A stretch of 39,744 nt of DNA from Pseudomonadota bacterium (GTDB lineage Bacteria; Myxococcota_A; UBA9042; CAIXZC01), in assembly GCA_043815665.1 (NCBI GenBank), contig JBDRIT010000013.1, positions 1 through 39,744 of the forward strand. Direction: 5' to 3'. This document shows, piece by piece, positions 14,359-39,608 of the stretch. Below the pieces are notes generated by a model. The model was not told the origin of the DNA, searched no databases, and saw only the letters and a program-made list of their open reading frames with translations. A program made the position numbers and the translations under genes. Positions within the stretch are counted from its first letter, which is position 1. The number at the start of each line of letters is the position of its first letter.

Positions 14359-15484
14359 CGGGTGCGCTCCAGCGCGGCGAGGACCATCTCAAGGGTGTCG
14401 CCGCCGGTGCGCTCCAGGAGCGCGTCCGCCAGGACCAGCGCGACGACGGCCTCGACGACCACGCCCCCCGCGGGCACCGCGCAGATGTCCGCGCGCAGGG
14501 GGTCCGTGGTGGTCTCCTCGCCGGTCTCGAGGTCTACGGAGGGGAGGCCCTCGCCAAGGGTCGGGATCGGCTTGAAGTGGACCCGGAGCACCAGGGGCAT
14601 GCCGTTGGTCATGCCGCCCTCGAGGCCCCCGGCGCGGTTGGTGCGGCGCAGGATCCCCCGGGACCCGCGGAAGATGCCGTCGTGGAGCCGGGAGCCCAGC
14701 TCCATGGCGCCCTCGACCCCGGCGCCGATCTCCATGGCCTTGACGCTGGGGACGCTCATGGCCGCCTGGGCCAGGCGGCCGTCCAGGCGCCGATCCCAGT
14801 GGACGTGGCTGCCCAGACCCACGGGGAGGGGCGCGACCAGGATCTCCGCGACGCCACCCAGGCTGTCCCTGGCGGCCCGGGCCGCCTCGATCTCCCGGAT
14901 CATCCCCGCGGTGGCCACGGGATCGTCGCAGCGGACCTCCGAGGCCTCCGCGGCGTCTGCGATGGCCTGGATCTCCGCGGGGCTGGTCAGGTGCTCCCCG
15001 CTGGTGCTCCCGGAGACCACGGCGCCGATGCGCCGCACCCGGGAGATCACGAAGATCCCCGCCTCGGCCAGGAGCCGCCGGGCCGCGGCCCCCAGCGCGG
15101 TGCGCATCGCGGTCTCCCGGGCGCTGGCCCGCTCCCAGATGGCCCGCACGTCGTTGAGGCCGTACTTCATGGCCCCGGCCAGATCCGCGTGGCCCGGTCG
15201 GGGGATCCGGATGGGCGGCAGCAGATCCAGTGCGTCGGCCTCCCCCGGGTTGCGCAGGCGGATGCCCAGGGGCGCCCCCGTGGTTCGGCCCTGGTGGAGC
15301 CCGCCCCAGATCTCGGCGTTGTCCCGGTGGCGCTGCCGGTTGCTGCGCCCGAAGCCCCGCTGTCGCCGGTCCAGGTCGCGGTCCACGTCGTCGAGGGTCA
15401 GGGGGAGCCCCGCGGGCAGGCCCTCCAGGATGCCCAGGAGCCCTGGGCCGTGGGAATCACCGGCGGTGTAGTATCGGAGTATCA
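14355..15484 (-). CDS. aroC: Chorismate synthase
   Basis: The start is set at MILRYYTAGDSHGPG (ATG complement at 15482-15484, with an AGGAGG RBS 7 nt upstream). Signatures include GxGRSSARETA-like motifs and a conserved C-terminus. The ATGA at 14355-14358 overlaps the aroKB start. Confidence 0.9.
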
Positions 15485-15593
15485 TGAGGTTCCCTCCTGT
15501 GCCACCTTGATTATGGGTCCAAGTGTCTTGATTCTCTACCCCTTCCTGATAGATCATCCTGATTGTTCGCTGAAACGACTCGGGAGTCTGAAC

Positions 15594-18101
15594 ATGCGCC
15601 TTCGAACGTCATTCCTGGCCGCCCTCTTGATCCTCCTTGCAGGCTGTGTGGAGCGCTACAGCTACCAGCACGTCAACGAAGACGCAGTCACTGCCGACAC
15701 CGGCGAGGTCGAGGGCGGCGACGTCTCCGGCGACGCCGCAGACGTCGGCGGTGACGGCGCGTGCGCGCCGGACTGCGCAGGCAGGATCTGCGGCCCTGAC
15801 GGCTGCGGCGGCGCCTGCGGGGACTGCGGCGTGGGCTACACCTGCGACCCGAAGGGGGAGACCTGTGCGGGGGACTGCGAGGCCCTCTGTGACGGCCTCC
15901 AGTGCGGCACCGCGGGGCTGGACGACGAGTGCGGCTGCGGGGACTGCGACGACGACGAGGCCTGCACCGACGACTTCTGCGGCGACGGGACCTGTGTCTA
16001 CGATCCCCTGGACAAGGAGTGCGACGACGGCGACCCCTGCACCATCGGCGACTGGTGCGTGGAGGGCCTCTGCGCGGCGACCGACAAGAACTGCGACGAC
16101 GGCAACCCCTGCACCGGCGACGCCTGCGGCGAGGCCGGGGAGTGCGTCTACACGAACAACACTGTGCCCTGCAACGACGAAGATCCCTGCACGGTGCCCG
16201 ATGTCTGCGCGGACGGGGCGTGCGTCGGGCAGCCGAAGGGCTGCGCCGATGACAACCCCTGCACCAAGGACTCCTGCAGTGATGCCGGGGTCTGCGACCA
16301 TGACCCCGTCGCCATGAACGGGGAGCCCTGCGACGACGGCAACCCCTGCACCGACGACGCGTGCTCCGGCGGGGGCTGTGTCGGCACCCTCAAGCTCCTG
16401 GAGGACCTCGAGGCGCTGGACTGCCTCTGCGCCGAGGACGCTGACTGTACGGATCTCGAGGACGCGGACGTCTGCAACGGCACCCTCGTCTGCGAGAAGG
16501 ACATGCCCGGGGATCCCGAGGGGATCTGCGTCGTCGACGACGGGACGATCCTCACCTGCGCGGACGAGATCGGCTGCACCGTAGACTCCTGCGACCCGGT
16601 GGACGGGTGCACCTTCACCGGTGCTGACGACCTCTGCGCCGACGAGGATCCCTGCACCGACGACCTCTGCGACGTCGTGCTGGGCTGTCAGCACCCCTTC
16701 AACGCCGCGCCCTGTGACGACGGCGACCAGTGCACCGACGGTGACCTCTGTGCGGAGGGCGTCTGCGCGGGGCCCGACGTGACGGACTGTGACGACCAGA
16801 TCGCCTGCACCGCGGACGGTTGCCAGGCAGAGAGCGGCTGCTCCCACGTCCCCGACGACGGGCTCTGCCCCGATTCCGGGGAGTGCCAGGTCGGGGTCTG
16901 CCTCCTCACCGCCGGCTGCAGCCTGGCGGACGCGGACGCCGGGACCCTCTGCGTCGGGGGCTCCTGCAAGGACGGGGCCTGTGTCCTCGTCGGGCAGGAT
17001 CTCTCCTGCGCCGAGATCAATGCCTGCGTCAAGGCCTGCGGGATCGGCGGCTCGGGATGCATGCAGGTGTGCGTCGACGCGGGGACGGTGGAGGGGAAGG
17101 ACCTCTTTGCGGACTTCGCCGCGTGCATGGACATCGCGTGTCCCGCCCCCGTGGAGCCGTCCTGTCCTCCCGTTGCGGAGGCGGGCGCCTGCGCGGCAGA
17201 GGCCGCCGCGTGCGAATCCGGCTGCGCGCCGGACTGCGCCGGCAAGGACTGCGGGGACGACGGCTGCGGGGGGTCCTGCGGGGACTGCGGCGGGAACGCG
17301 GCCCGCTGCCACGAGGGCGCCTGCATGCCTGCGGACATGGTCTGGGTGTCCCCGGGGGTCTTCGGCATGGGCTGCGTCGCGGCCGACACCGAGTGCGAAG
17401 GGGACGAAGACCCCTTCCACGAGGTCACCCTGGACGGCTTCGGCCTCGACGAGACCGAGGTGACCGTGCTGGACTACACGGGCTGCGTCGACGACGGCGG
17501 GGCCTGTGGGACCCCCGGGACCGGCGACAACTGCCTCTGGGCCACGGGGTGGGGGGTCAACAACAACCCGATCAACTGCGTGACCTGGGACATGGCCGAG
17601 GCCTACTGCGCGTGGACCGGGAAGCGCCTGTGCACCGAGGCCGAGTGGGAGAAGGGCGCCCGGGGCACCGACGGGCGGATCTACCCCTGGGGGGCCGCCG
17701 CGCCGACCTGCGCCCTCGCCGTGATCGACGGATGCGTGGGTGGGACCCAGGAGGTCGGCATCCACCCCGGGGGCGCAAGCCCCTATGGCGCCCAGGACAT
17801 GCTGGGCAACGTCTGGGAGTGGACCGCCGACTGGTACGCGGGGGACTACTACTGCAACGGGGACGGGGCCACGTGCACGGAGCTCTGCAGCGACTGCGCC
17901 GATCAGCCGGCCTTCGATGATCCCTGGGTCGATCCCGAGGGGCCCGCCGCGGGGAGCCTCCGGGTCACTCGCGGGGCCGCATTCTCCCACACGGATGTGC
18001 CCGGTGGCCTCGGCCTCAACACCCGGAATTCCCGCCGCCTGGGTCGGACCCCGACGGACAACTTCCCCACCGTCGGCTTCCGCTGCTGCTGGTCTCCGTA
18101 G
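15594..18101 (+). CDS. Lipoprotein with about 20 Dictyostelium-type CTDC cysteine-rich repeats and a C-terminal FGE/SUMF1-like domain
   Basis: The start is taken at the ATG at 15594 (MRLRTSFLAALLILLAGC, lipobox LAGC). The long upstream part of ORF 14577-18101 is the antisense shadow of aroC. Repeats have the form CxDGNPCTxDxC (for example DGNPCTGDACGEAGEC, DEDPCTVPDVC, DDNPCTKDSC). The C-terminal roughly 280 aa shows the FGE-sulfatase fold signature (WVSPGVFGMG...GNVWEWTADWY...RVTRGAAF...GFRCC). Confidence 0.75.
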   Translation: MRLRTSFLAALLILLAGCVERYSYQHVNEDAVTADTGEVEGGDVSGDAADVGGDGACAPDCAGRICGPDGCGGACGDCGVGYTCDPKGETCAGDCEALCDGLQCGTAGLDDECGCGDCDDDEACTDDFCGDGTCVYDPLDKECDDGDPCTIGDWCVEGLCAATDKNCDDGNPCTGDACGEAGECVYTNNTVPCNDEDPCTVPDVCADGACVGQPKGCADDNPCTKDSCSDAGVCDHDPVAMNGEPCDDGNPCTDDACSGGGCVGTLKLLEDLEALDCLCAEDADCTDLEDADVCNGTLVCEKDMPGDPEGICVVDDGTILTCADEIGCTVDSCDPVDGCTFTGADDLCADEDPCTDDLCDVVLGCQHPFNAAPCDDGDQCTDGDLCAEGVCAGPDVTDCDDQIACTADGCQAESGCSHVPDDGLCPDSGECQVGVCLLTAGCSLADADAGTLCVGGSCKDGACVLVGQDLSCAEINACVKACGIGGSGCMQVCVDAGTVEGKDLFADFAACMDIACPAPVEPSCPPVAEAGACAAEAAACESGCAPDCAGKDCGDDGCGGSCGDCGGNAARCHEGACMPADMVWVSPGVFGMGCVAADTECEGDEDPFHEVTLDGFGLDETEVTVLDYTGCVDDGGACGTPGTGDNCLWATGWGVNNNPINCVTWDMAEAYCAWTGKRLCTEAEWEKGARGTDGRIYPWGAAAPTCALAVIDGCVGGTQEVGIHPGGASPYGAQDMLGNVWEWTADWYAGDYYCNGDGATCTELCSDCADQPAFDDPWVDPEGPAAGSLRVTRGAAFSHTDVPGGLGLNTRNSRRLGRTPTDNFPTVGFRCCWSP

Positions 18102-18190
18102 CCTCCGACAGGTGGAGGTCTTTCTGTGGGAGGCCCGTCCACGGGCCGAATCGGGGCGTGGACGCCCCTCCCACAGTCGAGTGGCCAACC
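18102..18190. repeat. REP-like imperfect palindrome (long GC hairpin) between convergent genes; likely a bidirectional terminator
   Basis: CTGTGGGAGG-cc-CGTCCACG-ggccgaatcgggg-CGTGGACG-cc-CCTCCCACAG at 18124-18176, plus a small hairpin CCTCC-gacaggt-GGAGG at 18103-18119. One arm is repeated at 25941-25968. Confidence 0.6.
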
Positions 18191-18192
18191 GG

Positions 18193-19182
18193 CTACCAGA
18201 CGTCGTCGACTTCCTGGATGTCCCCGAGCAGCCCGGCGAGGCGTTTCTTCAGCTGGGTCTCGATCTGGCGGATCCGCTCCCGGGAGACGCCGTAGCGATC
18301 GCCGATGTCCTGGAGGGTCTCCGGGGTGTCGGAGAGGAGTCGGGACCGGAGGATGTCCCGCTCCTTGTCCGAGAGGTCGTCTACCACCTCAGCGAGGCGC
18401 TCGGAGACCTTCTGGAGGATCTCCTCCCGGCCCAGGGACTCCTCCTGGGTGATGTCCGGGTCCGGGAGCATGTCGACGTAGCTCTGTTTCCCGTCGTCCC
18501 CGACGTCCGCGTCGAGGGAGAAGTCACGCTGCGCGAGGTGCATCTCCGCCTCGACCCGGCGCCTCCGCGCGGCCGCGGGGAGGAGGACCACGTCCCCCTC
18601 TCTGATCCCGTCGGCCCCCTCGTCGGAGATGGCCTCGTCCACGGAGTCGTACTCCCCCCCCTCCTTCTCGGTCTGCATCCGAAAGAAGAGCTTGCGCTGT
18701 GCGGCCGCGGTGCCCACCCGCACCATGGACCAGGAGCGGATGATGTAGTTCTGCATGTAGGCCTTGATCCACCAGACCGCGTAGCTGATCAGGCGGTAGC
18801 CCCGCTCCGGCTGGAACTTCTGCACGGCCTTCATCAGGCCGATGTTCCCCTCCTGGATCAGGTCCACGAGCTTCACGTTGTAGTGCTTGTAGCTGTGGGC
18901 CATCTTGACCACGAAGCGGAGGTTCGCCTCCACCAACTGTCGGGCGGCGTCCTTGTCTCCGCCCGTCGAGAAGCGCAGGGCCAGCTCCTGCTCCTCCTCC
19001 CGGGACAGGAGGGGCACCCGACGGATCTCGTCGATGTAGGTGTCCAGGGAGCTGCGGTTGGCAGGCGGCCGGGCCTGCTCCCGCACCGCGGGGTGGGCTG
19101 CGTCCTGTCGCCGCACCGCGGGGAGCTGCCGCTCCGGCGAGGGCGCCTTCAGGGCCTTCCGGGTGGTTCCGTCCTTCGTCAT
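18193..19182 (-). CDS. Sigma-70 family RNA polymerase sigma factor, RpoH (sigma-32)-like
   Basis: 329 aa with region 2 (LVDLIQEGNIGLMKAVQKF), an RpoH-box-like QRKLFFRMQ, and a region 4 HTH (ETLQDIGDRYGVSRERIRQIE). Confidence 0.85.
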   Translation of the reverse strand: MTKDGTTRKALKAPSPERQLPAVRRQDAAHPAVREQARPPANRSSLDTYIDEIRRVPLLSREEEQELALRFSTGGDKDAARQLVEANLRFVVKMAHSYKHYNVKLVDLIQEGNIGLMKAVQKFQPERGYRLISYAVWWIKAYMQNYIIRSWSMVRVGTAAAQRKLFFRMQTEKEGGEYDSVDEAISDEGADGIREGDVVLLPAAARRRRVEAEMHLAQRDFSLDADVGDDGKQSYVDMLPDPDITQEESLGREEILQKVSERLAEVVDDLSDKERDILRSRLLSDTPETLQDIGDRYGVSRERIRQIETQLKKRLAGLLGDIQEVDDVW

Positions 19183-19183
19183 C

Positions 19184-20233
19184 CTACTCCGCAGCCGGAG
19201 GGACTTCGCCGTTCAACATGTGGGTGAGGTACGCGTTCAGGTCCTCGGGGGTCTTGGCGTTCTCCTTCGCCCGCTCCGCCCTGGCCTGCGCCGGGGTCTT
19301 CCCCTGGGCCACGAGGAGCCGGGATGCGTCCACCTCCTGCTGCACCATGGACTGGATCCCCCCCGCGGAGCCCCATCCAACCTGCTTGCGGCCGTTGATC
19401 ACGAAGGAGGGCGTCCCCCGGGCCTCGAGCATCGTCGCGACCCGCATGTTCGCGTCGAACTGGAACCCCAGGGTGTTGTCCCCGAGGTCCTTCCTGAACG
19501 TCTCCATGTCCAGGCCGAGGCTCGCCGCGACCTGCTCGAGGTCCGCGTCCTCCAGGGCCCGGGAGTTCTCGAAGAGCGCGTCGTGGTACTCCCAGAATTT
19601 TCCCTGGCGGAAGGCCGCCATGGAGGCCGTGGCCGCAGCCCGGGCCCGGCGGTGCATGTCCAGGGGGTTGTTCCAGAAGATCCAGCGGACGTCCGGGAAC
19701 TCCGTGAGCAGGGGCTTCAGGCCGTCCGCGGCCCGCTTGCACACCGGGCACTGGAAGTCGGACAGGATGAACACCAGCACCGGCGCGTCCTCGGGGCCCG
19801 TCGCGGGATGCGCGCCGAACTTCGTGACGTAGCTGCCCTCGGGGGGCGGGGGCATCTTCGGGGCTGCGGGGACGGTCGTGGGCTTTGGGGGCGGGCTCGG
19901 AACCGGAACTGGAGCCGATGGCTTCGCCACGGGGGTCGCTGCGATCAGCGCTCTCACCCGCGCCTCAATCTTCTCGGAGGCCTTGGCCTCGACCTTGTCG
20001 GCTACCGCCTCGGCGAGTTTGTCGGTGTCGAACTGCACCACGGGCACCAGGACCTCCCGCTGAATGGTGACCGGCGCCGCCGGTGTCGTGGGGGCCGGCG
20101 CCGTGATCAGGGGCGCCTTCGCCGCGTCGGGGCAGGCCCCGAACTGACCGATCGCGAGTGCGAGCACCGCCACCGCCTCCAATACCACCGCCGCGGCCAA
20201 CAGGTACAAGGCGCTGCTTCTCTTCTCCGCCAT
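19184..20233 (-). CDS. Membrane-anchored DsbA-family thiol:disulfide oxidoreductase (CPVC active site)
   Basis: 349 aa with an N-terminal TM and an Ala/Pro-rich linker. The thioredoxin fold has FQCPVCKR and the conserved GTPSFVINGR. Its stop abuts the sigma-factor start (19182-19184). Confidence 0.7.
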   Translation of the reverse strand: MAEKRSSALYLLAAAVVLEAVAVLALAIGQFGACPDAAKAPLITAPAPTTPAAPVTIQREVLVPVVQFDTDKLAEAVADKVEAKASEKIEARVRALIAATPVAKPSAPVPVPSPPPKPTTVPAAPKMPPPPEGSYVTKFGAHPATGPEDAPVLVFILSDFQCPVCKRAADGLKPLLTEFPDVRWIFWNNPLDMHRRARAAATASMAAFRQGKFWEYHDALFENSRALEDADLEQVAASLGLDMETFRKDLGDNTLGFQFDANMRVATMLEARGTPSFVINGRKQVGWGSAGGIQSMVQQEVDASRLLVAQGKTPAQARAERAKENAKTPEDLNAYLTHMLNGEVPPAAE

Positions 20234-25451: not shown

Positions 25452-25928
25452 ATGGTCCAGCGTCTGCCCATGACCAACGAAGGCTTCCAGAAGCTCAAGG
25501 TCCAGCTCCGCCGCATCCGGGAGGTGGAGCGGCCCCAGAACGTGCGCGACATCGAGATCGCCCGCAGCCACGGGGACCTCTCCGAGAACGCGGAGTACCA
25601 CGCCGCCAAGGAGCGGCAGGCCATGCTCGATGCCCAGATGAAGCAGCTCGAGTCCAAGATCAGCCTCGCCCAGGTCATCGATCCCGCGTCCCTCTCCGGG
25701 GAACGGGTGGTCTTCGGCGCTACGGTGACCCTGGAGAACCTCGAGAGCGACGAGGAGGTCGTCTACCAGATCGTGGGGGACGACGAGGCCGAGCCCAACG
25801 AGGGGCGCATCTCCCTGTCCTCCCCCCTGGCCCGGGCCCTCATCGGCAAGACGGTCGGTGACGAGGTCATGGTCCACGCCCCCGGCGGTGACCGCGGCTA
25901 CGAGATCATGGGCGTCGTCTTCAAGTAG
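25452..25928 (+). CDS. greA: Transcription elongation factor GreA
   Basis: 158 aa. The N-terminal coiled coil has the acidic tip (HGDLSENAEYHAAKE). The C-terminal FKBP-like domain is present (SLSSPLARALIGKTVGDEV). Confidence 0.9.
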   Translation: MVQRLPMTNEGFQKLKVQLRRIREVERPQNVRDIEIARSHGDLSENAEYHAAKERQAMLDAQMKQLESKISLAQVIDPASLSGERVVFGATVTLENLESDEEVVYQIVGDDEAEPNEGRISLSSPLARALIGKTVGDEVMVHAPGGDRGYEIMGVVFK

Positions 25929-25940
25929 GCATCTGTCTTT

Positions 25941-25968
25941 GTGGGAGGGGCGTCCACGCCCCGATTCG
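25941..25968. repeat. Partial copy (one arm) of the REP-like palindrome found at 18124-18176
   Basis: GTGGGAGGGGCGTCCACGCCCCGATTCG equals the reverse complement of 18146-18173. It lies between convergent greA and the TPR gene and forms a GGGG...CCCC hairpin. Confidence 0.5.
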
Positions 25969-25971
25969 CAG

Positions 25972-26892
25972 CTACTCCGTCTTCCCTTTCTCGATCTCGG
26001 CCTTGATCCGCGCCATCTCCTTCTGCCCCACCTCGACGAAGGGCTTCTCGCTCTCCAGGCGGCCGGCGACCTCCACGTAGCGGCCCCAGATGTCCAGGGC
26101 CTTGGCGAGCTCTCCGGCCTCCTCGTAGGCGTAGGCCAGGTTGTAGAGGGCCTCGGGGTAGCGGCTCTTCAGCTCCACGGACCGCTCCAGGGCCTCGATC
26201 TCCTTGGGCAGGTCCCCGAGCTTGTGCCAGGCCAGGGCCAGGTTGTAGCTGGCCTTGTAGAAGGACGGGCGCTTCTCCAGCGCGGCCTCGTAGGCCGCGA
26301 CCTCCTTGCGGATCATGGCCTCCCTGGCGGCGGCCTCCTCGGTCGTCTCGGCCTTCTTGCCGTAGGCGATGCCCAGGTTGTAGTGGATGTCCGGAACGTC
26401 CCGGGTGAGGGTCAGGGCCTTGCTGTAGGTCTCGATGGCCTCGTCCAGGCGCTCCATGCGGGCCAGGAGGATCCCCAGGTTCACCAGCCCGTCCAGGGCC
26501 TCGGGCTCGTGCTCGAGGGTGCGCTGGTACTCCGCGACGGCCTCCTCGTACTGGCCCTCGTCCTCCAGGGCCAGGGCCAGATTGTAGTGGGCCCTGGAGT
26601 ATGTCGGGTCCAGCTCCAGGGCCTTGCGGTAGGCGTCCTTCTCCTTGTCGTACTGCCGCAGCTGGCCGTAGGCCGCGCCGAGGTTGTACCAGGCCTCCTT
26701 GAAGTCGTCCCGCTGCTCGATCGCGGCGCGGTAGAGCCCCACCGCCTCGCGGTATTCGCCCTGGACGAAGAGGTCGTTGGCCTTGCGGAAGTTGTCCTCG
26801 GGGGAGCGCTCCTCCTGCGCGGCCGCGAGGGCCGGTGCGAGGAGCAGCCAGAGGGCCGCCGCGATCCCGAGGTACCGAATGCCTGTGTTCAT
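25972..26892 (-). CDS. Secreted TPR-repeat protein
   Basis: 306 aa with a signal peptide (MNTGIRYLGIAAALWLLLAPALAAA) and multiple TPR units (AWYNLGAAY, AHYNLALAL, IHYNLGIAY, ASYNLALAW, ALYNLAYAY). Confidence 0.7.
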   Translation of the reverse strand: MNTGIRYLGIAAALWLLLAPALAAAQEERSPEDNFRKANDLFVQGEYREAVGLYRAAIEQRDDFKEAWYNLGAAYGQLRQYDKEKDAYRKALELDPTYSRAHYNLALALEDEGQYEEAVAEYQRTLEHEPEALDGLVNLGILLARMERLDEAIETYSKALTLTRDVPDIHYNLGIAYGKKAETTEEAAAREAMIRKEVAAYEAALEKRPSFYKASYNLALAWHKLGDLPKEIEALERSVELKSRYPEALYNLAYAYEEAGELAKALDIWGRYVEVAGRLESEKPFVEVGQKEMARIKAEIEKGKTE

Positions 26893-27073: not shown

Positions 27074-29254
27074 GTGCTCAAGCTGGAACAGATCCTGTCT
27101 TCCCTCCAGGAGTACCACCCCGGCGCGGACGTGGACCTGATCAAGGCTGCGTACCTCTACGCGTTCGAGAAGCACCAGGGCCAGAAGCGGCAGTCGGGCG
27201 AGCCCTACATCATCCACCCCCTGAGCGTGGCCCAGATCGTCACCACCCTGAAGCTGGACGAGGAGGCCATCGCGGCGGCACTGCTCCACGACGTGGTGGA
27301 GGACACGGAGGCGTCCGCGGCGGACATCAAGGAGCGGTTCGGGGAGCGGGTCGCGGTCCTGGTGGACGGGGTCACCAAGCTGTCCAAGATGAGCTTCTCC
27401 AGCCAGGAGGAGCGTCAGGCCGAGAACTTCCGCAAGATGATGATGGCCATGTCCCAGGACATCCGCGTGATCCTGGTGAAGCTCGCGGACCGCCTCCACA
27501 ACATGAAGACCCTGGACTACAAGGCCCGGGCCATGGGGGGCATGGAGAGCGCCCAGCGCATCGCCCGGGAGACCATGGAGATCTATGCGCCCCTGGCCAA
27601 TCGCCTGGGCATCCATGGGATCAAGTCCCAACTCGAGGACCTCTCGTTCCAATACCTCAACGCCGAGGACTGGGTCGAGATCAATAAAAAACTCTCGCGG
27701 CGGAAGCGGGAGAACCTGCGCTTCATCGACCTGGTCAAGGGTATCCTGGGCAACGAGCTCAAGGCCGCGGGCTACACCGCCGAGCTCGACGGGCGCATGA
27801 AGCACGTCTACAGCATCTGGCGCAAGATGCAGTCCCAGCGGATCCCCTTCGAGGAGGTCTACGACATCGTCGCGTTCCGGGCCATCGTCGGGCAGGTCAA
27901 CGAGTGCTGGCACATCCTCGGCATCGTCCACCAGCTCTGGAAGCCCATCCCCGGCCGGTTCCGGGACTACATCGACCTGCCGAAGCCCAACGGCTACCGC
28001 TCGCTCCACACCTCGGTCATCGGGCCCAACGGCGAGCCGATGGAGATCCAGATCCGGACCCGGGAGATGCACGAGCAGGCCGAGCGCGGCATCGCCGCCC
28101 ACTGGCGCTACAAGGAGTCGGGGCCCGTGAGGCGCCCCGACGAGGAACGGATCAAGATGCTCAAGGATCTCCTGGAGGGGATCCGCGAGCTCCACAAGGA
28201 GACCTCTTCCTCCAGGGAGTTCCTCTCCACGGTGAAGGAGGACCTCTTCGGAGACGAGATCTTCGTCTTCACCCCCAAGGGCGACGTCAATGTCTTCCCC
28301 CGGGGCGCGACGCCGGTGGACTTCGCCTACTCGATCCACTCCGAGGTGGGGCACCACTGCACCGGGGCCAAGGTCAACGGGACCATGGTGCCCCTGTCCT
28401 ACCCCCTCCACAGCGGCGACATCGTCCAGATCCTGACCTCCCCGTCCCAGGCGCCCAACAGCGATTGGCTCAAGTTCGTCCGGACGGGCCGGGCCAAGAC
28501 CAAGATCCGGGCGGTCTTCCGCCTGGAGCGGCGCGGTCGGTCGCTGGAGATCGGTCGGGCCCTCCTGGAGAAGGAGTTCAAGAAGCGGGGCCTGTCCTTC
28601 AACAAGCTCCACAAGAAGGGGGAGCTCCAGCGGGCCGCGGAGGAGCTCCGGGCCGAGGCGGAGGAGGAGCTCATCGTTCGGGTCGGGGCCTCGAAGATCA
28701 CCCCGGAGCAGGTCCTCGGGGTGGTGGCTCCGGAGACCCTGGACAAGGGGCTGACCCCGGAGGAGGAGGTGCGCCCCTCGGGGATCTCCGGTCTGATCAA
28801 TCGCATCATGCCCGATGCGTCGGGGCGGGTCCTGGTGGGCGGGGAGGGGGACATCATGACCCACTTCGCGCGGTGCTGCGCGCCCCTGCCTGGAGACAGC
28901 CTCGTGGGCCACGTGAACCGGGCCCACGGGATCACCGTGCACCGGCAGGACTGCAAGCAGGTGGAGGACGCGGATCCCGACCGCATCGTGGACGTGGCCT
29001 GGGATCGCAAGGCCGGCGGCGACCGCACCGTCCGGCTCCGGGTCCTCTGCAACGATCAGCCGGGGATGCTCGCCGCGATGACCCAGGTCTTCACCAACCT
29101 CGGCGCCAACATCATGAGCGCCAACTGCAAGGGCAGCGGCGACAAGGGCGCGGTGAACATCTTTGAGATCTCCGTCTCCTCGGTGAGCCACCTGAAGTCC
29201 GTCACCCGCGCACTCGAGCGGATCCCGGGGATCCGCTCCGTCCAGCGCGCCTGA
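27074..29254 (+). CDS. relA: Bifunctional (p)ppGpp synthetase/hydrolase, RelA/SpoT homologue
   Basis: 726 aa with a GTG start and GGGAGG RBS. Domains are HD (HDVVEDT), synthetase (RFRDYIDLPKPNGYRSLHTSV, GEPMEIQIRT), TGS and ACT. Confidence 0.95.
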   Translation: MLKLEQILSSLQEYHPGADVDLIKAAYLYAFEKHQGQKRQSGEPYIIHPLSVAQIVTTLKLDEEAIAAALLHDVVEDTEASAADIKERFGERVAVLVDGVTKLSKMSFSSQEERQAENFRKMMMAMSQDIRVILVKLADRLHNMKTLDYKARAMGGMESAQRIARETMEIYAPLANRLGIHGIKSQLEDLSFQYLNAEDWVEINKKLSRRKRENLRFIDLVKGILGNELKAAGYTAELDGRMKHVYSIWRKMQSQRIPFEEVYDIVAFRAIVGQVNECWHILGIVHQLWKPIPGRFRDYIDLPKPNGYRSLHTSVIGPNGEPMEIQIRTREMHEQAERGIAAHWRYKESGPVRRPDEERIKMLKDLLEGIRELHKETSSSREFLSTVKEDLFGDEIFVFTPKGDVNVFPRGATPVDFAYSIHSEVGHHCTGAKVNGTMVPLSYPLHSGDIVQILTSPSQAPNSDWLKFVRTGRAKTKIRAVFRLERRGRSLEIGRALLEKEFKKRGLSFNKLHKKGELQRAAEELRAEAEEELIVRVGASKITPEQVLGVVAPETLDKGLTPEEEVRPSGISGLINRIMPDASGRVLVGGEGDIMTHFARCCAPLPGDSLVGHVNRAHGITVHRQDCKQVEDADPDRIVDVAWDRKAGGDRTVRLRVLCNDQPGMLAAMTQVFTNLGANIMSANCKGSGDKGAVNIFEISVSSVSHLKSVTRALERIPGIRSVQRA

Positions 29255-29258
29255 GCCC

Positions 29259-30257
29259 ATGACCTCGCGCGGGGACCGGCCACCCGAGGGGGGCCACCGC
29301 CGGGACGAGCGCCGCCTCCACATCTGCATGGGCGAGGTCTGCAACAACAACTGCCTCTTCTGCATGGACAAGGGGGGTCGCCTCCGCCAGCGGCATCTCG
29401 AGCTCATCAACCCGGAGGAGACCCTCCGGTTCATGGAGGAGAACCGGGACCTGGGGGAGATCCTCTTCACCGCGGGGGAGCCCACCCTCCACGAGGACCT
29501 GGTCCGGTACATCGGGCACGCCAGGCGCCTGGGCTTCTACCGGATCGGGTTGATCACCAACGGCCGCCGCCTGGCCTACCACGCCTACGCGGAGGGCCTC
29601 CTGCGCGCGGGCCTCAACAGCGTGGTCCTCTCCATCCATGGCCACCAGGCGCGCCTCCACGACGGGCAGACCCGGACCCCCGGCAGCTTCGAGCAGACCG
29701 CGGCGGGCCTCCGCACCCTGTCGGATCTCAAGGCCGGGTGGGAGCTCCACCTCTCCACCTCCACCGTGGTGAACCGACGGAACGTCCCCCACCTCGACGG
29801 GATCCTCGCCTTCCTTCTGGCCTTCCCCCTGGACCAGATCGTGCTCAACGCGGTCCAGCCCCTCGGCCGCACCGCCGATCTCTTCAATCAGCTCGTCCCA
29901 CGGTACTCCGAGATCGTCGATGCCCTCTCCGTCGCGCTGGAGCATGTCCCGGAGGACCAGCGGGCCCGGATCCGTCTCCTGGACGTGCCCCCCTGCCTCC
30001 TGACCCGCCTCCCCGAGGAGACCCGGGGCTGGGTGGAGGAGCACCAGCACTTCGAGCGGCGGGGCGGTCTCCCTCGGGGCCTGGGGGACGCGGCGCTACG
30101 CAAGGGAACCCGCGGCGTGGTGCGCAAGAAGGACTTCGATGCGATCCAGCGCGCGTTCGGCCCGCCCTGCGAGGGCTGCCCCCTCCGGCCCCGCTGTGAC
30201 GGCGTCTGGCGGCGCTATGCGGAGGAGTACGGCTGGGACGAGTTCGGTGCCCCCTGA
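29259..30257 (+). CDS. Radical SAM enzyme, paralogue 1 of 4 (CNNNCLFC; C-terminal C...CxxCx5C)
   Basis: 332 aa. The motif VCNNNCLFCMDKGG lies near the N-terminus with TAGEPTL about 30 aa later. The C-terminus has PPCLL...PPCEGCPLRPRCDGVWRRYAEEYGWDEF. The ATG is 5 nt after the relA stop. Confidence 0.8.
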   Translation: MTSRGDRPPEGGHRRDERRLHICMGEVCNNNCLFCMDKGGRLRQRHLELINPEETLRFMEENRDLGEILFTAGEPTLHEDLVRYIGHARRLGFYRIGLITNGRRLAYHAYAEGLLRAGLNSVVLSIHGHQARLHDGQTRTPGSFEQTAAGLRTLSDLKAGWELHLSTSTVVNRRNVPHLDGILAFLLAFPLDQIVLNAVQPLGRTADLFNQLVPRYSEIVDALSVALEHVPEDQRARIRLLDVPPCLLTRLPEETRGWVEEHQHFERRGGLPRGLGDAALRKGTRGVVRKKDFDAIQRAFGPPCEGCPLRPRCDGVWRRYAEEYGWDEFGAP

Positions 30258-30348
30258 CGCCCTCCCCCCTGGCGTGGGGGCCCGGAAGTTGTTATTAAGC
30301 CACCAGGGGTTCCGATCTCGAGAGGATCCCGGAGGAGAGGGAGCGACC

Positions 30349-31311
30349 ATGGCCGACGAGCGGACGGCGCAATCCACCGAGCGGGTAGACGTCAAGACCG
30401 GCTTCAACTGCAACAACCGGTGCTTCTTCTGCGTTCAGGGGAACAAGCGCGACCTCTACGGCAACAAGTCCACCGAGGAGGTCAAGGAGACCCTGCGCGC
30501 CGCGGTGCAGGACTCCGACTCCATCGTATTCACCGGCGGCGAGGTCACGATCCGGCCCGACTTCATCGAGCTGGTCCGCTTCGCCAGGGAGCTCGGCTTC
30601 CGCAGCATCCAGGTCCAGACCAACGGCCGGATGCTGGCCTACAAGAAATTCGCAGAGCAGACCGTGGCGGCCGGGGCCAACGAGTTCTCCCCCGCGATCC
30701 ACGGCCACACGGCAGAGCTCCACGACTACCTGACCCGCTGCGCGGGGAGCTTCAAGCAGAGCGTGCAGTCGATCCGGAACCTCAAGGAGCTGGGCCAGCG
30801 GGTGATCACCAACTCCGTGATCACCCGCTCCAACTTCCGGCACCTCCCGGAGCTGGCCGCGCTCCTGGTCCGCCTCGGCGTCGATCAGTACCAGTTCGCG
30901 TTCGTCCACGCCCTGGGCACCGCACAGGAGAACTTCAGCCGGATCGTCCCCCGCATGACCCTGGTCGAGCCCTACGTGAAGCGCGGCATCCAGGTCGGCG
31001 TCCAGGCGGGCCGCATCGTCCTCACCGAGGCGATCCCCTACTGCTTCATGTCCGGGTACGAGGAGCACGTCGCCGAGCGCTTCATGCCCCGCACCAAGAT
31101 CTTCGATGCGAAGATGGTTGTGCAGGACTACACGAGCTACCGCTGGACCGAGGGCAAGGGCAAGGGGCCGCCTTGCAAGGACTGCACCTGGAATCCGGTC
31201 TGTGAGGGCCCCTGGAAGGACTACGTGGACGGCTATGGCTGGGACGAGTTCCTCCCCCGCACCGACGCGGTGACCATCACCCTCCCGGAGAGCCGGGGCA
31301 AGGGCTGCTGA
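30349..31311 (+). CDS. Radical SAM enzyme, paralogue 2 of 4 (CNNRCFFC; C-terminal C...CxxCx5C)
   Basis: The start is taken at the ATG at 30349 (RBS GGAGGAGAGGGAG). The ORF 30139 extension is GC-rich read-through. Motifs are FNCNNRCFFCVQG, TGGEVTI and PPCKDCTWNPVCEGPWKDYVDGYGWDEF. 320 aa. Confidence 0.8.
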   Translation: MADERTAQSTERVDVKTGFNCNNRCFFCVQGNKRDLYGNKSTEEVKETLRAAVQDSDSIVFTGGEVTIRPDFIELVRFARELGFRSIQVQTNGRMLAYKKFAEQTVAAGANEFSPAIHGHTAELHDYLTRCAGSFKQSVQSIRNLKELGQRVITNSVITRSNFRHLPELAALLVRLGVDQYQFAFVHALGTAQENFSRIVPRMTLVEPYVKRGIQVGVQAGRIVLTEAIPYCFMSGYEEHVAERFMPRTKIFDAKMVVQDYTSYRWTEGKGKGPPCKDCTWNPVCEGPWKDYVDGYGWDEFLPRTDAVTITLPESRGKGC

Positions 31312-32972
31312 TGCCAGGCGACACCACCGCCGAGATCAAGGAGTCCGCGGCCCAGGAGAAGCGCCAGTGGGTCCGGCTCACGAAGCTCTGCAACAACCGC
31401 TGCACCTTCTGCCTCGACTCCGAGGCCCAGGACGGGACCATGGTGCCCGCGGACGCGGTGCGGCGACGGATCATCGAGGGCCGCGAGGCCGGCGCGACCC
31501 GCCTGATCCTCAGCGGCGGGGAGCCCACGATCCACCCGGACTACCTCTCCTTCATCGAGGCGGGGCGCCACGCGGGCTACCGCTGGGTCCAGACCATCTC
31601 CAACGGCAGGATGTTCTCCTACAAGAAATTCGCGGACCGGGCCCTGGCCGCGGGGCTGGACGAGGCCACCTTCTCCATCCACGGGCACACCCCCGGGATC
31701 CACGATCGGCTCACCGGGGTCCCCGGGTCCTTCGACCAGGCCCTGCGGGGGCTGAAGAACCTCCTGGGACGGTGCGTGACCAACGTGGACGTGGTGCTCA
31801 ACAAGCAGAACGTCCCCCACCTGCGGGAGCTCCTCGAGTTCTTCATGGACCTGGGGATCCACGAGTTCGACCTGCTCCACACCGTCCCCTTCGGCCTGGC
31901 CTGGTGCGAGAACCGGGACGCGCTGTTCTACGACCCCGCGGTGCTCTCGGCGGATCTCCGGCGTGCCTTCGAGCTGCGCCACCGGGACGGCATCTACATG
32001 TGGACCAACCGCCTCCCCGCCCGCTACCTCGAGGGGGCCGAGGACCTGATCCAGGATCCCAAGAAGATCCACGACGAGGTCCGGGGCCGCTGGGATCACT
32101 TCCAGACCTGGGTCGACACCGGGGAGCCGCTGCCCTGCCGGGACGAGCGCTGCCCCTTCTGCTTCCTTGAGGGGTTCTGTGACCGCCTTGGGGACGTGGT
32201 GGAGGCGCGCCTCGGACGGCGGGCCGCGGGGGACGGCGCGACCCGGGTCCGGGCGGACTGTGGGAGGGGCTTCAGCCCCGACGGCGGACACGGGACCTCC
32301 TGGCCTGCGGATCTCGCGCTGCCCGAGGCGATCCGGCTGGAAGTCATCGCGGCGACCCCCGAGGACGCGGAGGCCTGGCTGGAGGCCTTCCCCGGCATGG
32401 TGGAGCATCTCACCCTGGTGGTGGCGCCCTGGGCGACGGATCCGGGTCCCTGGGCCGGGCTCCTCGCACGGGCCGACTCTGTCCGCCTGGGGCCCGACGC
32501 GCCGGACGCGGGAGCCGACGCGATCCTTGCCGCCTGGCGGGCTGCGCCGCGGCGGGGGCGCCTGGAGGTGCCCGCGCTCATCGGGCTCGGGGACATCCTG
32601 GACACGGGGGACGGGGACGAGGCCTTCTACGTCCCCGTGCGGGAGCGCCTCACCGTGGCCATGGCCCGGGATCTGGACCTGGACGGGGTCCGGGCGCTGC
32701 ATCTCCGTACCGGGCGCCCCGTCGAGGGGCTGCCCCCCTGTCTGGACACCGGTGCGACCCCGCCCCCGGCGTTGGCGGAGCTGGATCTCACCCTCCTCGA
32801 CCCGGCCGGGCGACTGGACATGATCCGCTACACCGACGACTATATCGCCCGGTGGTACATGGTGAAGAGCCACCGGTGCGACGGCTGCCCGCGCACCGGG
32901 GCGTGCCCCGGGATCCACATCTCCGGGGCCCGGCGCTTCGGGCTCGCGGCGCTCACGCCCGTCGAGGAGTGA
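31311..32972 (+). CDS. Radical SAM enzyme, paralogue 3 of 4, with a ~250 aa C-terminal extension (CNNRCTFC; extra CRDERCPFCFLEGFC; terminal CDGCPRTGAC)
   Basis: 553 aa. Its ATG overlaps the previous TGA (tgATG). Motifs are LCNNRCTFCLD and SGGEPTI. A mid-protein Cys cluster and an Ala/Asp/Pro-rich low-complexity region lie between the core and the terminal CxxCx5C. Confidence 0.75.
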   Translation: MPGDTTAEIKESAAQEKRQWVRLTKLCNNRCTFCLDSEAQDGTMVPADAVRRRIIEGREAGATRLILSGGEPTIHPDYLSFIEAGRHAGYRWVQTISNGRMFSYKKFADRALAAGLDEATFSIHGHTPGIHDRLTGVPGSFDQALRGLKNLLGRCVTNVDVVLNKQNVPHLRELLEFFMDLGIHEFDLLHTVPFGLAWCENRDALFYDPAVLSADLRRAFELRHRDGIYMWTNRLPARYLEGAEDLIQDPKKIHDEVRGRWDHFQTWVDTGEPLPCRDERCPFCFLEGFCDRLGDVVEARLGRRAAGDGATRVRADCGRGFSPDGGHGTSWPADLALPEAIRLEVIAATPEDAEAWLEAFPGMVEHLTLVVAPWATDPGPWAGLLARADSVRLGPDAPDAGADAILAAWRAAPRRGRLEVPALIGLGDILDTGDGDEAFYVPVRERLTVAMARDLDLDGVRALHLRTGRPVEGLPPCLDTGATPPPALAELDLTLLDPAGRLDMIRYTDDYIARWYMVKSHRCDGCPRTGACPGIHISGARRFGLAALTPVEE

Positions 32973-32973
32973 T

Positions 32974-33906
32974 ATGGCGAATCTCGGCTACATCCAGGTC
33001 ACCCGCACCTGCAACCAGGCTTGCATCTTCTGCTCCAACCCCGAGCTGGATCGCGAGGCCACCCTGGCGGACGTCGAGGGCCTGGTGGACGACTTCGTGG
33101 CGCGGGGTTACGACGGGGTCATCATCACCGGCGGGGAGCCGACCCTCTTCTGCCAGCTCCCCGAGCTCATCGCGTACGCGACCTCGAAGGGCCTGGGCGT
33201 CCGGATGATCACCAACGGGCAGAAGACCTGCGACATGGACTTCCTGCGGCCCCTGTACGACGCGGGGCTCCGCCATGTCCACCAGTCCGTCTACACCCAC
33301 GATCCCGAGATCCAGGCCCGCCTCACCGGCAGGGCCGAGTCCCACGTGAACCTCTGCGCAAGCCTGGACAACTTCGGCGCGCTGGAGATGCAGGTGGACG
33401 TGAACATCACCATCCAGAGGTACAACGCCAACCACCTGGATCGGGTGGTGGTCTGGCTCCTGGAGCGGTGGCCCTTCATTCACCACGTGGTCTTCAACAA
33501 CCTCGACCCCACCTCGGACCGGGTGGCCGAGAACAGGGACGTGGTGCACAAGCTCGCGGACATGGAGCCCTTCCTGTTCCGGGCCCTCTCGTACCTCGAG
33601 CGCCACGGGCGCACCTACCGGGTGGAGCGGGTCCCCCTGTGCTACATGACCGAGTTCGCCCACGCGTCCACCGAGACCCGCAAGATCGTCAAGGGGGAGG
33701 AGCGCATCGTGCACTTCCTCGACGAGAAGGGCATGGTGCGCCAGACGGACTGGGAGCACGGCAAGGCCGACGTCTGCGCGGGCTGCTCCCTGACGTCGAT
33801 CTGCGCGGGGCTCTTCGAGATGGACAACTTCTATCAGAGCAGCGAGCTCTATCCGCTCTTCGTCCCCAAGGAGCCCATCGTCCGCCGGATCCTGAAGGGG
33901 AGATGA
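32974..33906 (+). CDS. Radical SAM enzyme, paralogue 4 of 4 (CNQACIFC; C-terminal C...CxxCx5C)
   Basis: 310 aa with the ATG 1 nt after the previous stop and a GAGGAG RBS. Motifs are TCNQACIFCSNPE, TGGEPTL and VPLCYM...VCAGCSLTSICAGLFEMDNFY. Confidence 0.8.
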   Translation: MANLGYIQVTRTCNQACIFCSNPELDREATLADVEGLVDDFVARGYDGVIITGGEPTLFCQLPELIAYATSKGLGVRMITNGQKTCDMDFLRPLYDAGLRHVHQSVYTHDPEIQARLTGRAESHVNLCASLDNFGALEMQVDVNITIQRYNANHLDRVVVWLLERWPFIHHVVFNNLDPTSDRVAENRDVVHKLADMEPFLFRALSYLERHGRTYRVERVPLCYMTEFAHASTETRKIVKGEERIVHFLDEKGMVRQTDWEHGKADVCAGCSLTSICAGLFEMDNFYQSSELYPLFVPKEPIVRRILKGR

Positions 33907-39008: not shown

Positions 39009-39608
39009 ATGCGGACTCTGGTGATCATGCTGGCCCTGGCCGTGATGGCCCTCGGCTGCGGTGGCGAGAAGAAGGCCGACGAGAAGAAGGCCGGCGAAAA
39101 GAAGACGGAGAAGAAGGCCGAGAAGAAGGCCGAAGAGAAGAAGATCGAGGAGCCTGCTGCCGAGGAGGCTCCCGCTGCCGAGGAGGCTCCCGCCGCTGAG
39201 GAGGCTCCCGCCGCTGAGGAGGCTCCCGCCGCTGAGGAGGCTCCCGCCGCCGAGGAGGCTCCCGCCGCCGAGGAGGCTCCCGCCGCCGAGGAGGCTCCCG
39301 CCGCCGAGGAGGCTCCCGCCGCCGAGGGGGCTCCCGCCGCCGAGGAGGCCAAGGGCGAGGGGACCGGCAGCGTCTGTGACGCGTACGCAGCCTGCTGCAT
39401 GGCCTACGCCGACGCGCTGGGCGGAGTCCAGGGCGTGCCCGAGTCCGCGGTCCAGGCGACCAAGGACGGCTGCAAGCAGATCGAGCAGCTCAAGACCATG
39501 GGCGCCGCCGCGGCGCAGGCTTGCCAGCAGGGCCTCGACGCCATGAAGCAGGCCGGCGAGGCCTACAAGGCCATGCCCGGGTTCGTCTGGCCCGAGGCGT
39601 GCAACTAG
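39009..39608 (+). CDS. Lipoprotein with a Lys/Glu-rich segment, (EEAPAA)x10 tandem repeat and a Cys-containing C-terminal domain
   Basis: Start at MRTLVIMLALAVMALGC (lipobox ALGC) with a GAGGAG RBS 7 nt upstream. The perfect peptide repeat EEAPAA is followed by a roughly 90 aa domain containing 6 Cys. Confidence 0.6.
   Translation: MRTLVIMLALAVMALGCGGEKKADEKKAGEKKTEKKAEKKAEEKKIEEPAAEEAPAAEEAPAAEEAPAAEEAPAAEEAPAAEEAPAAEEAPAAEEAPAAEEAPAAEGAPAAEEAKGEGTGSVCDAYAACCMAYADALGGVQGVPESAVQATKDGCKQIEQLKTMGAAAAQACQQGLDAMKQAGEAYKAMPGFVWPEACN
39149..39340 (+). repeat. 18 nt tandem repeat GAGGAGGCTCCCGC(C/T)GC(C/T), about 10.5 copies, in frame within the CDS
   Basis: Read directly from the sequence. Only third-position C/T wobble differences separate the copies. 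Confidence 0.9.

Follow-up and report, generated by a model that had tools for sequence, protein, structure and literature searches.

In the 39,744-nt window analysed here, which is one entire contig of a MAG that carries the label 'Pseudomonadota bacterium' at NCBI, two pairs of genes face each other across spacers that hold GC-rich hairpins. At site 1, a gene for a protein with a Cys-rich repeat (Dicty_CTDC) and an FGE-sulfatase domain converges with one for a sigma-70 family factor, and at site 2 greA converges with a gene for a TPR protein. All four genes had been called in a first-pass annotation and are confirmed by Pfam, which also supports the radical SAM gene (31311-32972) that carries a further copy of the hairpin unit. 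The genes at the two junctions and the repeat units of the window are:

14577 to 18101, plus strand: gene for the Cys-rich repeat (Dicty_CTDC)/FGE-sulfatase domain protein (Pfam), 3' end facing site 1
18102 to 18123, plus strand: small hairpin CCTCCGACAGGTGGAGG followed by TCTTT, immediately past the CTDC stop, weakly terminator-like
18124 to 18176, no strand assigned: probable REPIN of two REP units, tail-to-tail inverted, with the common centre CGAATCG; sequence CTGTGGGAGGCCCGTCCACGGGCCGAATCGGGGCGTGGACGCCCCTCCCACAG
18124 to 18152, plus strand: left REP unit, 'CC/GG' stem type, CT-GTGGGA-GGCCCGT-cc-ACGGGCC-GAATC
18148 to 18176, minus strand: right REP unit, commonest ('master') type, CT-GTGGGA-GGGGCGT-cc-ACGCCCC-GATTC in minus-strand reading
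18193 to 19182, minus strand: gene for the sigma-70 family factor (Pfam), 3' end facing site 1
25452 to 25928, plus strand: greA (Pfam), 3' end facing site 2
25939 to 25967, plus strand: REP singlet between the greA and TPR stops, TT-GTGGGA-GGGGCGT-cc-ACGCCCC-GATTC
25972 to 26892, minus strand: gene for the TPR protein (Pfam), 3' end facing site 2
32258 to 32282, plus strand: short-stem REP unit CT-GTGGGA-GGGGCT-tc-AGCCCC-GAC, in frame within the radical SAM gene and encoding CGRGFSPD

Exact look-ups of the sigma-factor and GreA products found no entry for either. A homologue search with the greA product, however, returned the window's own protein (P0001) at 100% identity and, among the matches listed, MAG proteins from Deltaproteobacteria, Myxococcales and Polyangiaceae as the closest. 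Syntenic contigs of relatives, reached through homologues of GreA and of the radical SAM protein (rSAM), have a DNA identity to the window of 82-86%. Among these related loci (numbered with L in the following), L028 and L035 are sisters (~92% nucleotide identity) and the window lies outside the pair (~85%); L041 is, by nucleotide identity, also a sister of L028. The coding DNA of the window and that of the MAG CAZNWW are ~85% identical.

At site 1, a 91-nt spacer separates the CTDC/FGE-sulfatase stop codon (18099-18101) from that of the sigma-70 gene (18193-18195, minus strand). Folded whole, this spacer has a predicted energy of -48.7 kcal/mol (z = -2.6) when taken as RNA; as DNA it has -28.4 kcal/mol (z = -4.4; 0/200 shuffles as stable). 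The long imperfect hairpin described in the first-pass annotation is there, but it occupies 53 of the 91 nt and does not fill them: it extends over 18124-18176, where the predicted fold has paired stretches of 10, 8 and 3 bp, with a 2x2 internal loop between each and the next. It corresponds to the inverted doublet of REP units, which is predicted to be able to fold as a single long hairpin; both pairing partners are exchanged between its two stems, hence the two internal loops. The stem variant of the left unit recurs as one doublet partner in L002, L003, L005, L013 and L019, and the plan of the whole doublet in L003, L005, L008, L013, L015, L019 and L035. The flank tcttt(c)tgtggg, previously taken to be common to the copies at both junctions, belongs at site 1 to the left unit, not to the arm with the site 2 sequence. 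Between the CTDC stop and the doublet, the small hairpin stretch (18102-18123) contains CCTCCGACAG, which has 1 mismatch to the reverse complement of the REP head. This small hairpin (18101-18119) is the only call of the terminator scan near site 1, and the count of that scan is within chance (2 found, 2.8 expected).

Site 2 is bounded by the greA stop (25926-25928) and the TPR stop (25972-25974). The recurrence of one arm of the site 1 hairpin at 25941-25968, noticed earlier at 28/28 positions, holds and is one base longer, as 18147-18175 and 25940-25968 agree, in inverted orientation, at 29/29 bases; allowing up to 3 mismatches, there are 2 matches in the window and 0.00 expected (100 shuffles). 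No T run follows the REP hairpins of sites 1 and 2 on either strand, in agreement with the earlier statement that both are free of a U-tract. Scanning the window for the combination of head, perfect stem and GA returned 4 well-formed units against 0.4 expected in shuffles. A fifth candidate at 290-315, with one head mismatch and in a low-GC stretch, was set aside as a chance match, 0.4 such matches being expected. None of the Rfam 15 families matched anywhere in the window at the gathering score. Simple repeats lie towards both ends of the contig: a perfect hexanucleotide repeat, (CCGTGA) x13.5, adjoins a lower-GC stretch at its start (51-131), and within the last ORF an 18-nt tandem repeat (GCCGAGGAGGCTCCCGCC, 10.6 copies, 97% matches; 39159-39349) encodes a low-complexity stretch of (AEEAPA)n type and is preceded by Lys/Glu-rich 15-nt repeats (39065-39143).

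The REP units are 25-29 nt long and follow a common plan, in which CT-GTGGGA is followed by a GC-rich stem of 6-7 bp with a loop of 2-4 nt and then by GAyyC. The forms of the family are written out in GTGGGAGGGGCTTCAGCCCCGAT and GTGGGAGGGGCGTCCACGCCCCGAT, with CTGTGGGAGG as unit string and GTGGGAGGGGCGTCCA, plus variants, as a 16-mer of the family. GTGG heads every unit, two bases from the foot of the stem, although the GTGGGAGG head is invariant by construction because it served as the search anchor. The base preceding it is T in 67/70 units, and the preceding dinucleotide is CT in 51/70 and TT in 11/70. As a MAFFT alignment of the units put gaps in the 3' stem and not in the loop, covariation was counted on end-anchored stems. 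Across 45 distinct units, 266/270 stem positions are paired, compared with a mean of 207 +/- 5 and a maximum of 223 when the 3' partners are shuffled, and this pairing is kept through changes on both sides of the stem: pair 3 is G-C in 35 units and C-G in 10; pair 4 is G-C in 26, C-G in 12 and T-G in 5; and pair 6 is G-C in 21, T-A in 14 and C-G in 6. The conserved feature of the family is the pairing of the hairpin, not the sequence of its stem.

The family is multi-copy in an uncultured Myxococcota lineage, where its units are found as singlets, inverted doublets and tandem arrays and vary in number between close relatives. A degenerate pattern covering both stem types (TGTGGGAGGNNCGTCCACGNNCCGA), scanned against one genome per species, matched at least 24 loci; among the matches listed, 23 lie in the MAG CAZNWW01 (GCA_964576155.1, uncultured Myxococcales) and 1 in a second Myxococcales MAG, and three more loci come from JGI metagenomes. 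The viral contigs yielded no copy of the family, their one match being a Pseudomonas-type GI REP. We collected 51 units in a first set and 70 in the non-redundant final set; the window contig has 4 units in 39.7 kb, and L028 has 4 in 20 kb. The master 29-mer of the window is present in at least 7 further, identical copies in the CAZNWW Myxococcales MAG. The absence of further copies genome-wide, which the first-pass annotation had named as part of a refutation, is clearly contradicted by the dozens in related genomes.

Neighbouring units form 17 direct pairs, with a period of 30-39 nt, 9 tail-to-tail inverted pairs and 2 head-to-head pairs, and no target-site duplication was found at the flanks of 9 doublets. 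A CRISPR array was considered and rejected: the linkers are constant, 7-17 nt long and without unique spacers, and the units are dispersed over many loci. A long-loop variant of the unit, GTGGGAGGGCCTTT...AGGCCCGA, was observed at L004:1763-1866, L014:7438-7550, L020:7731-7834 and, in part, in L002. Its conserved loop insert of ~62 nt (GTAGCTGAGCTGAGCGGACGCAGTTCGCTCGTGCGAAACTGATGCCCTTTGGGTAC) is found at no fewer than three loci of the CAZNWW MAG and has a hairpin of its own (CAGTTCGC..GCGAAACTG); it could be a small nested element, or else REP loops could be the target of a second element.

The gene context of the copies was taken from a rough GC3-based call, as stop-to-stop ORF cover does not discriminate coding from non-coding sequence in DNA of high GC content. 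By this rough call, units are found between convergent genes at both window sites and in L013, L018 and L023, between co-directional genes in L008, L014 and L024, and between divergent genes in L001, L005, L006 and L014, the last arrangement accounting for about one quarter of the classifiable intergenic copies. The majority of units lie, again by the rough call, between genes or in 5' untranslated stretches, and at least 2 loci carry units in frame within genes. Their placement at convergent, co-directional and divergent junctions alike suggests that the units are generally extragenic and not specific to 3' ends.

Orthologous junctions differ in the number of units they carry. At the CTDC|sigma junction the window has 2 units, L035 has 4, and L028-L030 have none. 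The spacer of L028-L030 is 9 nt long, and alignment of L028 to the window is interrupted exactly at 18101|18192; the block missing from L028 measures ~82 nt and includes the small hairpin stretch 18102-18123. In L035, L036 and L038, three direct units are accompanied by an inverted GGGGCGTGGACGCCCCTCCCACAG, the core of the right (master) unit of site 1 in the window, which adjoins the sigma stop. Since L028 and L035 are sisters and the window lies outside the pair, the absence from L028 is more simply explained by a loss than the presence elsewhere by two gains. At the greA|TPR junction, L028-L030 and L031 have one unit in the same place and orientation as the window, with other stems (GGGGTCtctGGCCCC, GGGGCCtctGGCCCC), the more distant L033 has no unit and a spacer of 6 nt, and L038 and L041 have tandem REP arrays. 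Arrays of REP units also form the ends of contigs of relatives at both junctions.

Unit presence conflicts with the identity tree at site 1, where the window and L035 have units and L028 does not, as well as in the rSAM gene, where the window and L028 have a unit and L041 does not; recombination or repeated events could each account for this patchy pattern. More generally, the mobility of the units is read from presence and absence between species, and deletion or homologous recombination could also produce what we see.

Three further differences were observed at these junctions. In L033, chorismate synthase directly follows the sigma gene, and the whole CTDC/FGE-sulfatase gene is missing together with the REPIN junction, which makes the gene itself an indel in the clade. 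In L031 (6330-6490), the greA|TPR spacer is ~400 nt longer, and shortly before the conserved REP unit it holds a tandem array of an unrelated 32-nt unit (AATCACAGACGTGAGCTTGCGAACGTCACCTC) in about five copies. Finally, the contigs of one relative (L035:10500-10554 and the ends of L036 and L037) terminate in poly-G runs directly after greA, apparently an artefact of assembly at this repeat-rich spacer.

Units are also found inside coding sequence. Across 32258-32282, GC at the third codon position stays at 0.88-0.97 in the frame of the rSAM gene, from which we conclude that the unit is translated, as CGRGFSPD. The same codon carries a unit in L028 (core GGGCCTTCAGGCCC) and in L043 (GGGGCTCCGGCCCC), where the window has the core GGGGCTTCAGCCCC; each of the three versions is a perfect palindrome, each changes the encoded residues, and each has matching variants elsewhere in these genomes or in related ones. 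Eight other orthologues, including those of the CAZNWW MAG and L041, are without a unit and have RADAARRF or a close variant instead, 5-7 codons shorter in the alignment. A 13-mer in this gene (rSAM3, ~32269) had been dismissed as probably coincidental in the first-pass annotation; that view is refuted, as there is a full in-frame unit here, with units at the same codon in two orthologues. The gene belongs to a stretch (29196-33903) of four tandem radical SAM genes downstream of a RelA/SpoT-family gene, an arrangement kept in all close relatives (L028, L041); the third of these genes is extended at its C-terminus by a long stretch that is Cys-rich at the end.

A separate observation concerns the L028 orthologue of window 19184-20233, a DsbA/thioredoxin-like protein whose linker includes, in frame, an inverted REP doublet (L028:4261-4316) encoding PVGGPSGPKALGAEAPPTK. 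At the position of the doublet, the window orthologue shows the shorter stretch PVAKPSAPV..PVPSP, and the DsbA-like protein has a separate low-complexity insert of 35 residues (PEGGFSGP x2) nearer the N-terminus. Together, the in-frame units of the rSAM and DsbA-like genes offer a natural test of whether the hairpin, as DNA or RNA, can be kept at the expense of residues.

With its GTGG head, compensating stem changes, inverted doublets and arrays, and unit number varying among relatives, the family bears out the REP-like reading first given to the two junctions. It is a GT[AG]G-tagged, Pseudomonas-like REP/REPIN family, and thus an already known kind of element, in an uncultured Myxococcota lineage. 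Canonical REPs are defined by a 5' GT[AG]G at the foot of the hairpin (PMC6006769), and REPINs are found in ~10% of bacteria according to the literature. The GI REP of P. fluorescens SBW25 (GTGGGAGGGGGCTTGCCCCCGAT) and the REP of P. putida (TGTGGGAGCGGGCgTGCCCGCGAA) (PMC2817692 Table 1; PMC3116915 Table 1) have the same head as the myxobacterial unit, (T)GTGGGAG(G), followed in both cases by a GC-rich perfect palindrome two bases past GTGG and by the tail GA(T/A). The two-base gap between GTGG and the stem is as in Marinomonas REP-Mb and Pseudomonas GI, one myxobacterial short-stem unit matches a Pseudomonas REP at 18/23 positions without gaps, and one general pattern retrieves both the myxobacterial units and, from the viral collection, a unit of the Pseudomonas type. 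The Pseudomonas elements are mostly extragenic, as the myxobacterial units appear to be by the rough GC3-based call, and in both groups inverted doublets can fold into one long hairpin. They differ in their host (a Myxococcota lineage here, a gammaproteobacterium for the Pseudomonas REPs) and in the myxobacterial stem, which is one pair shorter or has another loop (TTCA, or a GT-CC-AC core). In contrast to the SBW25 GI and P. putida REPs, the myxobacterial family commonly forms direct tandem arrays with a 30-39 nt period, and the units of its doublets abut, with CGA(A/T)(A)TCG in common, whereas those of Pseudomonas doublets are separated by a spacer. For SBW25 GI doublets, Bertels and Rainey are said to have put this spacer at ~71 nt in 2011.

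The comparison extends to REPs with a characterised enzyme. E. coli and Stenotrophomonas TnpA-REP cut the folded single strand at a CT beside the REP and require the GTAG motif, and in Group 3 systems the stems are short and perfect and sometimes stand two bases away from the tag (PMC8266576). As in the myxobacterial family, E. coli REP/BIME elements, which go with TnpA-REP (RayT/YafM, PDB 4ER8; Group 2), have a GT[AG]G foot beside the hairpin; their Y and Z subtypes alternate within doublets, much as the 'GGCCCGT' and 'GGGGCGT' types do here, the CT beside our units is the dinucleotide cut by the E. coli enzyme, and target-site duplications are absent in both. On the other hand, E. coli REPs are longer (~35 nt), with GTAG as head and an imperfect, bulged stem that is needed by the enzyme, whereas the myxobacterial units have the head GTGG and stems that are short, perfect and Group 3-like. 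In the GTAG-tagged superfamily (Di Nocera et al., 2013), stems are 6-9 bp long, the tag may degenerate to GTGG (GTAG-20 of Opitutus terrae), and elements lie near stop codons, some of them wholly within ORFs without breaking the frame (PMC3733652). The latter parallel the insertions of the myxobacterial family in the rSAM and DsbA-like genes. Rickettsia palindromic elements (RPEs) are longer, at >100 nt, and are not known to be linked to RAYTs. Searched by myxobacterial names, the surveys PMC3733652, PMC2817692, PMC5581495 and PMC6006769 make no mention of a myxobacterial family, and literature combining RAYT with Myxococc* gave only titles apparently unrelated to REPs.

For a transposase partner, we combined a six-frame HUH-motif regex with tblastn searches, using E. 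coli TnpA-REP (its sequence checked against PDB 4ER8) and two consensus Y1 seeds as queries, and with a screen in which GC3-supported ORFs had to contain an HUH motif and a downstream Tyr. Neither the window nor ~400 kb of related loci yielded a RAYT or other Y1 (HUH) transposase, so that the RAYT association suggested earlier, for elements taken to be mobile and of REP/RAYT type, found no support there; the SBW25 GI family, by comparison, is tied to a Group 3/clade I RAYT. Five ORFs passed the screen for HUH and Tyr and were rejected as not Y1-like by eye, being sulfatase-, nucleotidase-, ligase- and HD-like and, in one case, apparently spurious.

Taken together, we consider it highly probable that 18124-18176 is a REPIN and that 25939-25967 and 32258-32282 are single units of one dispersed REP family, probably mobilised by a RAYT. 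The link to a RAYT is one that we infer from the type of REP: as in the case of the REPs with a GT[AG]G tag in Pseudomonas and enterobacteria, the units are probable substrates of a single-copy RAYT/TnpA-REP of the HUH-Y1 type. Such an enzyme would bind the folded single-stranded hairpin with its GTGG foot and cut at the adjacent CT, and units would thereby spread, be excised or be duplicated without target-site duplications. Where a hairpin is transcribed just past a stop codon, it probably slows 3'-to-5' decay of the RNA or damps convergent read-through, which would be a side effect and not the reason for the existence of the sequence; any role as terminator or RNA stabiliser is, in our reading, probably secondary.

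It has to be asked, nevertheless, whether the hairpins could be host-evolved and immobile, serving as bidirectional terminators or 3'-end stabilisers whose similarity reflects a shared functional optimum. The two intergenic copies of the window and those of L013, L018 and L023 do lie between convergent stops, within 4-54 nt of them, and the hairpins are very stable; yet independent evolution would hardly lead one to expect 29/29 identity between the sites and with 7 copies in a genome whose coding DNA is ~85% identical, and a terminator has no use for the conserved, asymmetric head GTGGGA. Both strands are without a U-tract, and copies also occur at divergent and co-directional junctions, in tandem arrays with 4 to 6 units or more, and within the reading frame of two genes. 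We therefore regard this explanation as distinctly improbable, and the bidirectional terminating or stabilising role that the first-pass annotation had put forward is not established by copies that have no U-tract and are also found in divergent, co-directional (both by the rough GC3-based call) and intragenic positions.

Two other explanations were considered. Units could be double-stranded sites for a palindrome-recognising protein, such as a global regulator or nucleoid protein; their core is palindromic, and E. coli REPs bind IHF, gyrase and Pol I (PMC6006769). We hold this to be very improbable, as the stem sequence is free while it remains paired, with swaps between G-C and C-G at two positions and from G-C to T-A at a third, which argues for recognition of the fold and not of the base sequence. 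Copies in coding sequence and in arrays also speak against it, and, for a REP, binding of this kind would be secondary anyway. The 53-nt palindrome could instead be a MITE, the deletion derivative of a DDE-type IS, with its arms as terminal inverted repeats; being short, palindromic, dispersed and present or absent at orthologous sites, it has the look of one. Against this, target-site duplications were found in 0/9 doublets, doublets are less common than single arms and direct tandem arrays, compensating changes preserve the separate hairpin of every arm, and no related full-length IS was seen, all of which leaves the MITE origin with almost no credibility.

The reading as a dispersed REP family, probably mobilised by a RAYT, admits a bolder extension, namely that a Group-3-like REPIN-RAYT system was acquired across phyla and that resident units continue to be replaced, with the genomic REP population as template, even within coding sequence. 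We regard this as unlikely; if true, it would be relevant to the claim of an almost strictly vertical inheritance of REPIN-RAYT systems, and it would imply a maintenance at the level of the hairpin that overrides protein sequence.

In practical terms, the junction hairpins should be labelled as members of a repeat family and not as gene-specific regulators. The units also coincide with the limits of assembly, as contigs of the lineage break right after greA and beside the sigma stop, and several end within REP arrays. The accepted view of how REPs act is unchanged by this family. It extends the Pseudomonas-like GTGGGAG type of REP to a myxobacterial lineage, which is thereby a place in which to seek a REPIN-RAYT pair outside the gammaproteobacteria.
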